From contig JBAZMQ010000003.1 of NCBI GenBank assembly GCA_041649675.1, positions 5,335-69,334 of the forward strand: a stretch of 64,000 nt of DNA, given 5' to 3'. This document shows positions 16,776 through 46,581 of this stretch, in pieces; position 1 is the first letter of the stretch; every line of letters starts with the position of its first letter. The position numbers and the translations under genes were made by a program. A model generated the notes under the pieces. The model was not told where the DNA came from. It saw nothing but the letters and a program-made list of their open reading frames with translations, and searched no databases. Origin of the DNA: Patescibacteria group bacterium (GTDB lineage: Bacteria > Patescibacteriota > Patescibacteriia > Buchananbacterales > UBA6539).

Positions 16776-16823
16776 GCACCCGAAAGGATTTGAACCTTTA
16801 ACCCCTTGGTCTCCCGCGCAAAC
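16776..16823 (-). repeat. tRNA-like 3' fragment (T-arm aaagg-ttcaaat-ccttt plus acceptor-like cgggtgcga) abutting the 3' end of tRNA-Arg
   Basis: Reverse complement reads ...ggggttaaaggttcaaatcctttcgggtgcga. No matching 5' half. Confidence 0.45.
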
Positions 16824-42822: not shown

Positions 42823-43563
42823 ATGATCAAAGAATCACTACAAAAATACGGTTTATCCAACAAAGAAGCCGATGTTTATTTGGCGCTTTTGGAGCTTGGT
42901 AAGGCTAAAAGTAGAGAAATTGCCACTAAAACTAAACTGCCCCGCTCAACGGTTTATAGTGTGCTGGAATTTTTAGAAAAGAAAGGCCTGGTTTTTTCTT
43001 TTGATCAAGGTAAAATTAAAACCTACGTGGCCCAAGATCCAGTGAGGATTGTTTCGGATATTGCCAGCCAGGCTCAAGCTATTAAAACAATTTTTCCGGA
43101 ATTAAAAGATTTATATCAAGGGGCTAAAACAAAACCGCAAATAAAATATTATCAGGGCGTTTCCGAGTTAAAAGGAATGTATAATGGCATTCTAAAAATA
43201 AAAGACTTAAAAAGTTATGATATTGTGGCAGCTGAAGGTTATTGGCTCAAGTTAGATGAAAAATTTTTACAAGATTTTAAAAAACGAAGGGCAGAGGCCG
43301 GCATAAAAACCCGATTAATATTGGATAATTCTCAAGCTTCTCTTGAGCGTAAAGCCAATGAAGAAAAAACTAACTCAGAGGTAAAAATTATGCCACCGAG
43401 CATGGCTCAATTTAAAATTTCTGCTGGAACTTATATTTTTAAGGATAAAGTAATTTTTATTGCCTATAAAAAAGAATTAATTGCAGTGGAAATAATTTCC
43501 GAAGAGATTTCCTCGTTACTAAAAATGATGTTTGAATTTTGCTGGCAATTTTTAGCCAAGTAG
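42823..43563 (+). CDS. TrmB-family transcriptional regulator
   Basis: N-terminal wHTH LSNKEADVYLALLELGKAKSREIATKTKLPRSTVYSVLEFLEKKGLV. Confidence 0.75.
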   Translation: MIKESLQKYGLSNKEADVYLALLELGKAKSREIATKTKLPRSTVYSVLEFLEKKGLVFSFDQGKIKTYVAQDPVRIVSDIASQAQAIKTIFPELKDLYQGAKTKPQIKYYQGVSELKGMYNGILKIKDLKSYDIVAAEGYWLKLDEKFLQDFKKRRAEAGIKTRLILDNSQASLERKANEEKTNSEVKIMPPSMAQFKISAGTYIFKDKVIFIAYKKELIAVEIISEEISSLLKMMFEFCWQFLAK

Positions 43564-43662: not shown

Positions 43663-43728
43663 CCGCCATATGCTCCTGTAGCTTCCGCCAAAGGCGGATC
43701 CGCCTTTGGCCCCTCACCATGCCTCTGA
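43663..43728. repeat. left arm of the nested inverted repeats enclosing tRNA-Arg(CCT)
   Basis: Outer IR ccgccatatgctcctg matches caggagcgtatggcgg at 43891-43906. Hairpin gccaaaggcgg-at-ccgcctttggc at 43687-43710. Inner IR cctttggcccctcaccatgcc matches ggcatggtgaggggccaaagg just 3' of the tRNA. Confidence 0.75.
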
Positions 43729-43800
43729 GCCCCTGTAGTTCAAAGGATAGAACAAGAGACTCCTAAGCTCTGGATGGAGGTTCGATTCCTCCCGGGGGCA
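43729..43800 (+). tRNA. tRNA-Arg (anticodon CCT)
   Basis: Acceptor gcccctg/cgggggc, D-arm gttc-aaaggata-gaac, anticodon loop ctCCTaa (4 bp stem plus one mismatch), T-arm ggagg-ttcgatt-cctcc. Confidence 0.7.
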
Positions 43801-43909
43801 TGGTGAGGGGCCAAAGGACATATAATAAGTTTCCCGACGTAAAATCGGGATCCCAATTCCGCTATAGGCAGACATCGGGACAACTCCTACCAGGAGCGTA
43901 TGGCGGGGT

Positions 43910-43948
43910 CTAAGCTCTGGATGGAGGTTAGATTTCCTCCTAAGGGCA
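43910..43948 (+). repeat. partial copy of tRNA-Arg(CCT), anticodon loop through T-arm (ctaagctctggatggaggttagatttcctcc)
   Basis: Near-identical to tRNA positions 33-64, with substitutions in the T-loop and the acceptor 3' strand. 110 nt downstream of the intact gene. Confidence 0.75.
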
Positions 43949-43986
43949 AGTAAACAAATATTAATGATAAACTCGCCATTACCCTT

Positions 43987-44057
43987 GGGCCTATGGTCCA
44001 GTGGTACGACGCCACATTCGCATTGTGGAGACGGCAGTTCGATTCTGCCTAGGTCCA
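43987..44057 (+). tRNA. tRNA-Ala (anticodon CGC)
   Basis: Acceptor gggccta/taggtcc with the G3:U70 Ala identity pair, anticodon stem ccaca/tgtgg with loop ttCGCat, T-arm ggcag-ttcgatt-ctgcc. Confidence 0.7.
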
Positions 44058-44096
44058 GAGGTAATGGCAGGTATAAGAAGTTTTTTATTGATTCAC

Positions 44097-44690: not shown

Positions 44691-44826
44691 TTTATTACTT
44701 TTTTGACAAGCCTTGAAGTTGATTATATAATACATTCATTATTTAAAGTTATTTAGTATTAATATGGGCTCTTAGCCTGTTCATTATAATTTGAAAATTT
44801 AAATATTACCGCATACTAACACCAAT

Positions 44827-44900
44827 GGGCCCTTAGCTCAGTTGGCTAGAGCGCTTCCATGGCATGGAAGAGGCCAAGGGTTCAAATCCCTTAGGGTCCA
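44827..44900 (+). tRNA. tRNA-Ala (anticodon GGC)
   Basis: Acceptor gggccct/agggtcc with G3:U70, D-arm agctcagttggctagagc, anticodon stem cttcc/ggaag with loop atGGCat, T-arm ggg-ttcaaat-ccc. Confidence 0.8.
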
Positions 44901-44968
44901 TTGGCGTTGGTAGGCGGTGAAGGGAGTCACCCGAACGTAATATCGGATTTGGACTCACCAAAATATCT

Positions 44969-45253
44969 ATGAGTTACTATGTTTATTTTTTGAAAAGCAT
45001 AAAGAATAATAAAATCTATACAGGATACACTAAAATAGACCCAATTTTAAGAATTAAACAACACAACCAGGGAACGGATAAATGGACTAAAGAAAATGGT
45101 CCATTTTTGTTGTTATATTATGAAAAATATTGTTGTAAAAAAGATGCTATTTTGAGAGAAAAATTTTATAAAACAGGTATTGGCAGAAGAATTCACAATG
45201 CAATAATTAGCTCAGTTTCCGCCAAAGGCGGACCCGCCTTTGGCGGGGGCTAG
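44969..45253 (+). CDS. GIY-YIG nuclease-domain protein (UPF0213 / YhbQ-like)
   Basis: YVYFLKS..NKIYTGYT....R...HN.G is the GIY-YIG signature. 94 aa. The last 11 codons (SAKGGPAFGGG) read through the ccgccaaaggcgg palindrome. Confidence 0.7.
   Translation: MSYYVYFLKSIKNNKIYTGYTKIDPILRIKQHNQGTDKWTKENGPFLLLYYEKYCCKKDAILREKFYKTGIGRRIHNAIISSVSAKGGPAFGGG
45219..45246. repeat. palindromic hairpin ccgccaaaggcgg-ac-ccgcctttggcgg
   Basis: 13-bp stem with a 2-nt loop. Same family as 43687-43710 and 337-349. Confidence 0.8.
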
Positions 45254-45332
45254 AGCGCTTCCATGGCATGGAAGAGGCCAAGGGTTCTCAGCCAGAGGCT
45301 GATGCGCCTTTGGCGCAAAATTCCTTAGGGTC
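45250..45332 (+). pseudogene. partial tRNA-Ala(GGC) copy (D-stem 3' side through 3' end) with a 30-nt insertion in the T-loop
   Basis: ctagagcgcttccatggcatggaagaggccaagggttc is identical to the intact gene, then tcagccagaggctgatgcgcctttggcgcaaaatt, then ccttagggtcca. The 5' acceptor/D segment is replaced by the palindrome. Confidence 0.75.
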
Positions 45333-45822
45333 CACCAAAAATAATGTTTCACAAGAAACATTATTTTTGTTTTGGCTATATAATTACTCCCCCTGTTTTA
45401 AATTCAGTTACTTGGGGGGGGGGCGGCTTGTAAAACAAAAAAATAGGGTAGAAGTTTTAAGCTTACTACCCCTGTCAACTAATTGTATCATCCATGATCC
45501 GTACGGGACGTTGACGCGCCCTTGAGCCGTAGCTCAACTGTTGTTTTCCTTTTTTACCGCCTTTAGCAAGCAGTGTTGATCAGAAATAGATATTGGGAAA
45601 CGGGGTCCCCGTTGAAGAGAGATAGGCACCGGCTTAACTTATAAAAAGGAGGTTGTGGGAAGTTTTCTGGGGTGAACAACAGCTATTACCGATGGTATTC
45701 TAGACAAGGATCGGGGCATCTGCCCTTGTGCTTACCACTTCCGCAGACCAGAAAACTTTTTGCAGATGCTTACGCTCCTATTTTACCAAAAAAATGAAAA
45801 ATTTAGAATATACAATTAAGTT

Positions 45823-46581
45823 TTAATTTTTTATCCTAGTCTTTGGTGAAAAATCATAGATAAATTTAAACCAGGTGCGATAGCTATTGGCCAGTTTTTC
45901 ATCGCGCAAAATAAATAAAGTAACATCATCATCAACCTTTTTTAATTCCAGCCCGGTAAAAGTAACAACATAGTCGCCAAAAATATCAATGGCTGATTCC
46001 GTACTGTATTGACTGGGGATAAAACGATATTCACCACCCAAAATTTTAACTGCATCTTGGCCTTTTTCTTTAACTATTTCGTCATAAACATGGTAAAAGG
46101 TAATTTTTTTACGCTTAGCTTCTTTGAGAAATTGATCTAAAAAAGTTTTTAAACGCGGATCAAACCAGCCAAGCTTGGCACCGATCATATAAACATCCTG
46201 GCCGGTTCTTAAAATATCACGCAAATAATTTTTAAAACCTTCAAGGCCGCGATAGATGTAAGCTTCCTGGGTGTGCTCGCGACTTTCATAGCGCTTTCTT
46301 AATTCCGGTAAACTCTGATTTAAATTAATTTCTTTTTCTTTAATTAATTCTAAAAGTTTATCCGGATCAACTGGTGAGTATAAATTTTCATTTTTACTGA
46401 CAATTGGAAAAATTAATCCTTTGTCAATTAAACGATTAATTGCGTCATAAACATTACGGCGATGAATTTCAGCTTTGGAAGAAATTTGTCCAACGCCGGC
46501 TTCTTTTAAATCCAAAAGTGCCTCGTAAATTTTTGCTTCATTAGGTGAGAGACCCAATTCTTGTAAAACTTTTATTGACAT
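45823..46581 (-). CDS. TrmB-family transcriptional regulator
   Basis: LGLSPNEAKIYEALLDLKEAGVGQISSKAEIHRRNVYDAINRLIDKGLI. Confidence 0.75.
   Translation of the reverse strand: MSIKVLQELGLSPNEAKIYEALLDLKEAGVGQISSKAEIHRRNVYDAINRLIDKGLIFPIVSKNENLYSPVDPDKLLELIKEKEINLNQSLPELRKRYESREHTQEAYIYRGLEGFKNYLRDILRTGQDVYMIGAKLGWFDPRLKTFLDQFLKEAKRKKITFYHVYDEIVKEKGQDAVKILGGEYRFIPSQYSTESAIDIFGDYVVTFTGLELKKVDDDVTLFILRDEKLANSYRTWFKFIYDFSPKTRIKN

Follow-up and report, generated by a model that had tools for sequence, protein, structure and literature searches.

The closest described counterpart of the element reported here is SegB of phages T4 and T6, a free-standing GIY-YIG homing endonuclease of tRNA gene clusters. 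SegB recognises the tRNA T-loop consensus, cuts inside tRNA genes, homes with co-conversion, and drives recombination-dependent tandem amplification of segB together with tRNA segments (PMC2330249, PMC13096335). In a 64,000-nucleotide (nt) stretch of a Patescibacteria group bacterium (the window; assembly GCA_041649675.1, contig JBAZMQ010000003.1, positions 5,335 to 69,334 of the forward strand) we found a 94-amino-acid (aa) GIY-YIG nuclease gene between an intact tRNA-Ala(GGC) gene and a displaced copy of that tRNA, which is split by hairpin-forming inserts. This unit is called the cassette below. It resembles SegB in that a GIY-YIG gene is found among tRNA genes, and the amplification by SegB parallels the duplications, concerted evolution and tandem copies of the cassette. 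The two proteins differ in size and descent: SegB, a member of the homing-endonuclease/UvrC branch, has 221 aa with a C-terminal part that binds DNA, and the cassette protein is a bare 94-aa Slx1/UPF0213 domain. The cassette is found in cellular Patescibacteria, and no relatives of its protein were found in viral contigs. The fusion to tRNA, the stop codon inside the tRNA and the double hairpin do not appear in the accessible text of the SegB papers (PMC2330249, PMC13096335).

The UPF0213/YhbQ-type, Slx1-like proteins (PDB entries 1YWL and 1ZG2) have the same fold, size and minimal catalytic domain as the cassette protein. The prokaryotic Slx1-like branch has been described as a minimal GIY-YIG form with mainly vertical inheritance and a predicted repair role; the available part of that account contains no tRNA-gene residence, hairpin module or mobility (PMC1564403). 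In the same phylum, also known as the Candidate Phyla Radiation (CPR), small GIY-YIG open reading frames (ORFs) have been reported within a structural RNA gene with no group I or II intron. That work dealt with rRNA only and judged the GIY-YIG genes to be sparse and outside a homing context (PMC11270868). The tRNA cassette differs from those insertions in that the gene is restored by partial duplication and a D-loop double hairpin is carried. Group I introns are known in Patescibacteria tRNAs, with GIY-YIG not mentioned (PMC13011429). As to the hairpins, the mitochondrial double-hairpin elements (DHEs) are short GC-rich two-hairpin elements, considered mobile, in intergenic regions and in rnl (available part of PMC10085805, citing Paquin et al. 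2000). The fungal mitochondrial DHEs share the two-hairpin fold with the cassette module and differ in being organellar and dispersed, while the module is confined to tRNA D/T-loop junctions by the nuclease gene. Border hairpins of conserved structure and variable sequence are likewise found in integron attC sites, at IS200/IS605 ends and in the REP/RAYT system (repetitive extragenic palindromes and their associated tyrosine transposases); the module too is tied to one enzyme gene. This likeness is an analogy only, and the module, in contrast to those hairpins, is not dispersed over the genome. The enzymes at work in the attC, IS200/IS605 and REP/RAYT systems are tyrosine recombinases or HUH enzymes instead of GIY-YIG nucleases. 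In the atp6 gene of Allomyces, a GIY-YIG ORF reportedly arrived with a substitute for one end of the gene, and the original end stayed on as a displaced fragment.

An intact tRNA-Ala, a gap of 68 nt and a 94-aa GIY-YIG ORF had been described in an earlier reading of the letters alone (the sequence-only reading), and all three were found by ARAGORN, Rfam and Pfam. The protein matches PF01541 over residues 3 to 69 with 52.9 bits (cut-off 22.6, E=4.6e-14). A Patescibacteria metagenome-assembled genome (MAG) has an annotated protein of identical sequence (P0001); an exact-sequence look-up of the window protein and P0001 found neither on record. Four residues (G19, R28, H32 and E64) do not vary among 32 homologues, and at least 90% of these retain Y6 and Y17; the window protein has all six. 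We take these residues, by comparison with I-TevI and UvrC, to be catalytic (the GIY Tyr, the YIG Tyr, Arg, His/Tyr and the metal-binding Glu). The AlphaFold2 (AF2) model has a mean predicted confidence (pLDDT) of 90.7 and shows the alpha/beta GIY-YIG fold. When the model was searched with Foldseek, 1ZG2 came first, followed by Slx1 (7CQ2, 7CQ4, 4XLG, 6SEH), so that ranks 1 to 5 are all UPF0213/Slx1; the Slx1 matches include Slx1 in complex with flap DNA, and I-TevI (1MK0) appeared only at rank 20. A profile search of the PDB returned 1YWL and 1ZG2 alone, both UPF0213. The protein consists of the catalytic domain only, and neither Pfam nor the AF2 model indicates an auxiliary or DNA-binding domain. 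No family was found for it in NCBIfam or PHROGs. Judged by sequence and model, the protein appears to be an active nuclease of the Slx1/UPF0213 branch that consists of the domain alone. The earlier description of the domain as a typical homing-endonuclease module does not hold, since the protein lies in this branch and has no DNA-binding domain, unlike I-TevI and the Seg enzymes.

When the tRNA was compared with the window by blast, the second tRNA-Ala copy proved to be almost complete and split at two sites (Table 1). It had been thought to begin after the palindrome at the 3' end of the ORF, at the 3' strand of the D stem, with an exact stretch of 38 nt. A partial copy is indeed present, but the exact stretch is 40 nt long and starts at G18, and tRNA nt 7 to 17 lie upstream of the palindrome. 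The palindrome is therefore the 30-nt D-loop insert of the copy. The 30-nt T-loop insert had been seen correctly. The two inserts can be aligned column by column with compensatory changes in the stems; they are homologous, and the alignment that had been proposed as a check identifies the palindrome and the T-loop insert as the same element. A CCA end is encoded in the displaced copy and not in the intact tRNA-Ala. The sequence between the tRNA repeats is 347 nt long, with the nuclease ORF as its sole gene. The final 16 codons of the ORF are the D arm of the displaced tRNA plus the hairpin insert, and the stop codon (45251-45253) is the TAG within tRNA GGCTAG. Many homologues end in ...VSAKGGPASGGG, which is the hairpin module in translation. 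The D loop of the displaced copy is split by a hairpin, and the neighbouring functional tRNA retains all of the tRNA sequence intact.

We collected further modules by identity of their flanks to the two D-loop halves of the local tRNA; pairing was not a criterion. Thirty inserts were recovered in other loci, each exactly 30 nt long and all with strongly negative folding z-scores. Two folds were compared on an alignment of 29 modules. As two 6-bp hairpins, 99.1% of the cells are paired, 7 of 12 pairs are changed on both sides, and the covariation is 0.369 against 0.096 in shuffled alignments (0 of 500 shuffles); slid controls gave covariation near zero. As one long hairpin, 85% of the cells are paired, 3 of 13 pairs are changed on both sides, and the covariation of 0.126 is no better than the shuffled value of 0.103 (50 of 500). 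The single 13-bp hairpin was rejected on these grounds. The ORF does run into a palindrome (45219-45246), as had been noted, but covariation backs two 6-bp mini-hairpins and not the 13-bp stem given for it. The first loop is always A-N-A and the second always T-N-T, so that the module reads identically on both strands. It was concluded that the hairpin module is under structural selection. The left flank of the module is nearly always GTT or GCT, usually at D-loop position 17/18 and sometimes in the T loop or T stem. Displaced copies also carry solo hairpins, located in their T loops and anticodon loops and at their acceptor junctions. Twelve occurrences of the hairpin core CGCCTTTGGCG were counted (0.88 expected) and nine of fully paired 13-mers (0.2 expected), which is beyond chance. 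The dispersal typical of REP sequences, miniature inverted-repeat transposable elements or mitochondrial DHEs was not found: all exact core matches in the window (5/5) are at tRNA or tRNA-fragment sites. Per 10 kb there are 4.64 fully paired 13-mers in GIY-YIG loci and 0.39 in 58 tRNA-Ala loci that lack the gene, a 12-fold difference.

A scan of a genome collection with the protein alignment gave a family sample of 80 loci, mostly labelled Patescibacteria/CPR with a minority of others, e.g., "uncultured Gammaproteobacteria". tRNAs are present in 77 of the 80 loci, and in 71 a same-strand tRNA lies within 100 nt of the ORF; the other nine loci are mostly disrupted by contig ends, gaps or premature stops. 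The ORFs are 85 to 95 aa long and, where intact, under purifying selection (ratio of nonsynonymous to synonymous rates, dN/dS, 0.06-0.30). At least 71 of the 80 loci share one set of parts, namely an intact tRNA, an ORF running into tRNA sequence and a displaced partial copy of that tRNA with the double hairpin at D-loop 17/18. Type A (22 loci, arranged as in the window) consists of intact tRNA X, 0 to 86 nt, the ORF, X(~9-17), hairpin and X(18-76); the downstream piece and the upstream tRNA typically agree at 57-60 of 60 positions. Type B (49 loci) consists of X(1-17 or 1-12), hairpin, X(18-~27), 3 to 15 nt, the ORF from its ATG and, directly after it, intact tRNA X. The type B ORF generally lacks its own stop codon and ends at U8-A9-G10 of the tRNA in 20 loci and at GGC-TAG in eight. 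In L012 and L021 a hairpin-split 3' copy is placed 3' of the intact tRNA, and in L003, L004, L006, L027, L058 and L078 hairpin modules are found on both sides of the tRNA plus ORF. All these layouts can be read as insertion of the cassette at D-loop 17/18, where one junction has the hairpin and the other a regenerated intact tRNA. The nearest neighbour of an ORF has the same layout in 55 of 59 cases (0.61 by chance) and the same isotype in 34 of 59 (0.33 by chance).

Two loci carry further irregularities in the tRNA sequence. In L008 (2911-2996) the upstream tRNA-Pro has an 11-nt tandem duplication (GGCTAGAGCAT) that begins exactly at G18, the hairpin insertion site, and ARAGORN wrongly calls this gene tRNA-Cys. 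The duplication could be a footprint of break repair or an assembly error. In L141 (672-700) a displaced tRNA-Val copy has an extra 20-nt perfect palindrome (cctgcctgccggcaggcagg) in the anticodon arm, a further hairpin type.

The only syntenic relative found, L086, is collinear with the window over 35.9-48.6 kb. It keeps tRNA-Ala with its leader and trailer (87% identity) and lacks the GIY-YIG ORF, retaining just degenerate tRNA remnants with hairpins. The gene was found in none of 58 tRNA-Ala(GGC) loci, so that the comparison with relatives, which had been suggested earlier, did turn up tRNA-Ala loci free of the gene. The window protein has its closest homologues at tRNA-Val(GAC) (75% identity) and tRNA-Pro(TGG) (67%), both of type A and both with a displaced copy that matches the local tRNA. 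Exact tandem duplication (100%) of tRNA 18-76, spacer, ORF and hairpin was found in three unrelated MAGs with a period of 386 to 410 nt. Decayed copies are present at 769-1025 of the window (frameshifted) and in L029, L061, L065, L067 and L069. Family ORF pairs retain the arrangement up to a synonymous divergence (dS) of 1.6 to 2.8. In L002, L007 and L008 the ORFs differ by 9 to 20% and the displaced 58-nt copy is identical; between L010 and L015 (dS 1.6) one T-loop base differs and is carried by both copies inside each genome. The absence of drift in the displaced tRNA pieces and this shared substitution point to concerted evolution by frequent gene conversion between the neighbouring copies. 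Recent insertion was rejected as the cause of the identical tRNA copies, as copies are identical in loci with ORF dS of 0.3 to 2.8. A precise target-site duplication ending at the tRNA 3' end was also rejected, because the repeats of L003, L010, L011 and L014 enter the terminator and beyond.

The region is probably one copy of a Patescibacteria-wide family of selfish, tRNA-gene-resident minimal nuclease cassettes that spread by DNA breaks in tRNA genes and their repair. The arrangements seen in the window (type A) and in most relatives (type B) would both represent the cassette inserted at D-loop 17/18 (GTT^GG). The intact tRNA in the cassette would keep the host viable. The nuclease gene, on the same strand and mostly stopless, would be transcribed from the tRNA promoter, and the TAG of the D arm would end its reading. 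The nuclease would break tRNA-gene DNA, and recombinational repair from the occupied copy would carry the cassette into empty tRNA genes. The same repair may generate and homogenise the partial tRNA duplications and occasionally amplify the unit in tandem. The hairpin-split copy, presumably non-functional as a tRNA, may serve the element, acting as a target that is blocked or as a site of recombination. Nuclease-stimulated recombination would be expected to leave partial duplications, tandem units and copies that evolve in concert, and for this reason the selfish cassette is favoured. The decayed copies, the selection on intact ORFs, the concentration of hairpins in GIY-YIG loci and a sister subfamily found after tRNA-Gly and within 23S rRNA also speak for it. 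The sequence-only reading had proposed a minimal tRNA-targeting selfish element. Linkage to tRNA in at least 71 of 80 loci, absence from L086 and 58 other tRNA-Ala(GGC) loci and the change of isotype agree with it; its mobility and target cleavage stay at the level of deduction.

Several points weigh against the selfish cassette. DNA cleavage by the cassette nuclease, its cleavage site and its homing are steps that we infer by analogy. The protein is a bare catalytic domain without a DNA-binding module and is structurally nearer to Slx1 than to SegB or I-TevI. The occupied locus keeps the intact D loop of the functional tRNA, so that the usual rule of target destruction fails should cleavage take place in the D loop. 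A gene beneficial to the host could likewise be under strong purifying selection and keep its layout beyond dS 1. Since no viral relatives were found, no transfer vector is known. The survival of the hairpin in spite of gene conversion is unexplained. The Slx1-like bare domain, the intact D loop and a structurally selected hairpin that survives conversion keep alive a variant in which the hairpin itself is the substrate or recombination site.

In this variant, which we regard as doubtful but worth retaining, the element is a site-specific cassette directed by the hairpin: the folded double hairpin (single-stranded or cruciform) is the recombination site, the Slx1-like nuclease cuts its borders and GYT^ sites of tRNA D and T loops, cassettes with hairpin borders are inserted or excised, host enzymes join the ends, and solo hairpins, such as the T-loop insert of the window, are footprints. 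It would explain why the module sits at the junction of cassette and displaced tRNA, nearly always after GTT or GCT, why six loci have modules at both ends of the tRNA plus ORF, and why the module is strand-symmetric, with its A-N-A and T-N-T loops. The solo hairpins of displaced copies, the solved structures of Slx1 on branched DNA as nearest structural matches, and the L008 duplication that starts at G18 also agree with it. Against this, we know of no GIY-YIG enzyme that acts as a recombinase or transposase, and the joining activity is unaccounted for; the extent of the duplication varies (in L014 it passes the terminator), which homologous repair fits better than precise site-specific recombination. 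Rather unlikely, in our view, is a domesticated host function, i.e., a repair or RNA-processing nuclease co-expressed with tRNAs, with the hairpin-bearing tRNA-like segment as a regulatory or stabilising element of the mRNA, in the 5' untranslated region (type B) or at the 3' end (type A). The low dN/dS, the arrangement kept to dS 1.6-2.8, the covarying hairpins and the co-transcription with the tRNA would be expected of such a gene, and a prokaryotic Slx1-like domain is reported to be fused to a TrmH (Gm18) tRNA methyltransferase (available part of PMC1564403). A domesticated gene should hardly be absent from syntenic L086 and from the 58 tRNA-Ala(GGC) loci, occur in several copies per genome region at different tRNAs with some of them decayed, have its closest homologues at different isotypes, or be duplicated in tandem. 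Relatives lie within 23S rRNA as non-intron insertions (PMC11270868), and symmetry of the module on both strands is unexpected for an RNA element.

The other explanations are far weaker. An intact tRNA followed by a direct repeat of its 3' portion, with foreign DNA between them, was taken earlier as the signature of an integrated element, and it is how an integrase-type island with attL and attR at a tRNA gene would look. Such an island is barely credible here: the bracketed 347 nt code only for the 94-aa nuclease and for no integrase or recombinase, the repeat spans nearly the whole tRNA and holds 30-nt inserts, repeats at other loci pass beyond the tRNA, in type B the repeats are the tRNA 5' end (nt 1-27), and the tRNA copies evolve in concert. 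Very improbable, too, is a reading of the hairpins as intervening sequences that can be removed and of the second copy as a functional disrupted tRNA gene, comparable to the archaeal multi-intron and split tRNAs. The inserts do sit in D, T and anticodon loops, the flanking tRNA segments are 100% identical to the functional gene, and tRNA and rRNA genes of Patescibacteria are rich in introns (PMC13011429). Nevertheless, copies without the 5' acceptor strand (type A) or without everything past nt 27 (type B) allow no cloverleaf, an intact copy adjoins in nearly every locus, no match to an intron family was found in Rfam, and a full-length hairpin-bearing tRNA was found in 0 of 80 loci. Chance resemblance or an assembly artefact can hardly be maintained. 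Short-read MAG assemblies may mis-join repeats, and the tandems of L003, L010 and L011 may be loops of the assembly graph. The 40-nt exact match (E=4e-18) and the covariation of the hairpins speak against chance, and the architecture recurs in dozens of assemblies that different studies produced independently; a layout shared by over 20 independent assemblies argues against an artefact.

The open literature was searched, and no description of a tRNA-fused nuclease and hairpin cassette was found. We place the cassette with a kind already known, the free-standing GIY-YIG elements linked to tRNA genes; the proposed hairpin-dependent mechanism could well be new. More tentatively, and with the odds somewhat against it, it may belong to a class of mobile elements absent from the searched literature. 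In such a class a Slx1-like bare domain and a strand-symmetric 30-nt double hairpin would act jointly to place cassettes at GYT^ sites of tRNA genes (D loop and T loop) and at the tips of 23S rRNA helices. The tRNA would be regenerated or replaced by partial duplication, driving tRNA-gene duplication, pseudo-tRNAs and possibly replacement of tRNA genes throughout Patescibacteria, and the target would be set by DNA structure (cloverleaf or cruciform) instead of a DNA-binding domain. If the selfish cassette is the correct reading, it would give a concrete biological role to the widespread, uncharacterised UPF0213/Slx1-like minimal nucleases of bacteria and a case in which a nuclease without a DNA-binding domain finds conserved structured-RNA genes. 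It would explain why tRNA fragments, pseudo-tRNAs and ORFs with unusual tails (e.g., ...SAKGGPASGGG) are numerous in Patescibacteria genomes and would tie the non-intron insertions in CPR rRNA genes to tRNA genes. Annotation would have to allow for ORFs that end within tRNA genes and for displaced copies mis-called as tRNAs (ARAGORN calls in L006, L008 and L078).

The features of the locus are collected in Table 1. The promoter is the only full consensus match 5' of tRNA-Ala, and no comparable sigma-70 site was found in the interval between tRNA-Ala and the ORF. With a lone promoter and a lone terminator bracketing the region, tRNA, ORF and displaced copy form one transcription unit. The leader and trailer of the intact tRNA-Ala form a helix of 20 bp in the minimum free energy (MFE) fold, with a folding z-score of -6.9. 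The trailer was considered as a part of the element and rejected, because this helix is kept in L086, which lacks the ORF.

Table 1. Positions of the cassette features in the window, and of tandem units in three other loci.
Feature	Position	Strand	Evidence or remark
Sigma-70-type promoter, TTGACA-17-TATAAT	44703-44731	+	12/12 consensus match
Leader strand of helix prolonging acceptor stem of intact tRNA-Ala	44806-44826	+	pairs with 44901-44921, MFE fold
Intact tRNA-Ala(GGC), no encoded CCA	44827-44900	+	ARAGORN; Rfam RF00005, 66.1 bits
Trailer strand of leader/trailer helix	44901-44921	+	MFE fold; kept in L086
94-aa GIY-YIG nuclease ORF, Slx1/UPF0213 type	44969-45253	+	Pfam PF01541
Displaced copy, tRNA nt 7-17 (TTAGCTCAGTT; D-stem 5' strand and 5' D loop), within ORF	45207-45217	+	11/11
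D-loop insert between U17 and G18, 30 nt: TCCGCC-AAA-GGCGGA and CCCGCC-TTT-GGCGGG	45218-45247	+	sequence, covariation
Displaced copy, G18 to T-loop C56	45248-45287	+	40/40 identical to intact gene, blast E=4e-18
T-loop insert, 30 nt: TCAGCC-AGA-GGCTGA and TGCGCC-TTT-GGCGCA	45288-45317	+	column-for-column alignment with D-loop insert
Displaced copy, 3' T loop to discriminator, then encoded CCA	45318-45337	+	16/17 match at 45318-45334
Intrinsic terminator, 15-bp stem and T run	45336-45369	+	3' of displaced tRNA copy; end also given as 45379
Tandem units, L003	2882-3714		
Tandem units, L010	2870-3746		
Tandem units, L011	2894-3739		

Complementary leaders and trailers prolong the acceptor stems of three clustered tRNAs by 9 to 20 bp: Arg-CCT (43711-43815), Ala-CGC (43970-44075) and Ala-GGC (44806-44921). 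They could be a processing stem. The tRNA cluster is flanked by two ORFs of about 250 aa at 42823-43563 (+) and 45823-46581 (-), the latter kept in L086; the N-termini of both look TrmB-like as judged by eye alone.

A second GIY-YIG gene in the window belongs to a much larger subfamily in Patescibacteria (1266 hits). This ORF (769-1025) starts 11 nt past tRNA-Gly(TCC) (683-757) and has a frameshift near 895. In this region (661-1051) a CCCGCC..GGCGGG hairpin adjoins the 5' end of the tRNA-Gly, and a remnant of the tRNA-Gly acceptor stem, GGGCGGG-TTACCCGCTCCA, is found at 1031-1051, 3' of the ORF. Some intact subfamily members lie directly 3' of tRNA-Gly with an acceptor-stem remnant downstream (L143, L150-152). 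Another member, the 85-aa GIY-YIG ORF of L145 (1160-1480), occupies a helix loop, with CCCGCC/GGCGGG as the helix, close to the 5' end of a 23S rRNA gene; no match of this insertion to an intron family was found. It agrees with the published non-intron GIY-YIG insertions of CPR rRNA genes (PMC11270868).

Other tRNA remnants are found in the window. At 303-360, a tRNA-Pro-like 5' fragment (CGGGCTGTGGCTCAGTT) is followed by a 30-nt double hairpin (321-350), where the motif of the T-loop insert had already been spotted, and by GGCTACC; it lies 165 nt 5' of the intact tRNA-Pro (526-602) and looks like a remnant of a type B cassette whose ORF was lost. Downstream of tRNA-Phe (15-89), small hairpins extend over 117 nt, and a displaced copy of its T arm and acceptor 3' end comes next (207-230, 24/24 exact). 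The displaced tRNA-Phe piece is broken by a different hairpin type, CCCGCC-GAAACGAAGTGTA-GGTGGG, and there is no ORF at 15-230. tRNA-Arg(CCT) (43729-43800) is preceded by GCTCCTGTAGCT and a double hairpin (43681-43710) and followed by a 24/25 copy of its own anticodon/T-arm region (43910-43934); an outer complementary pair surrounds it (43663-43678 with 43893-43908). This suggests that tRNA-Arg(CCT) is nested in an older split tRNA. Another remnant, a fragment of a tRNA T arm and acceptor 3' end, is found beside tRNA-Arg(TCG) at 16785-16822 (-).

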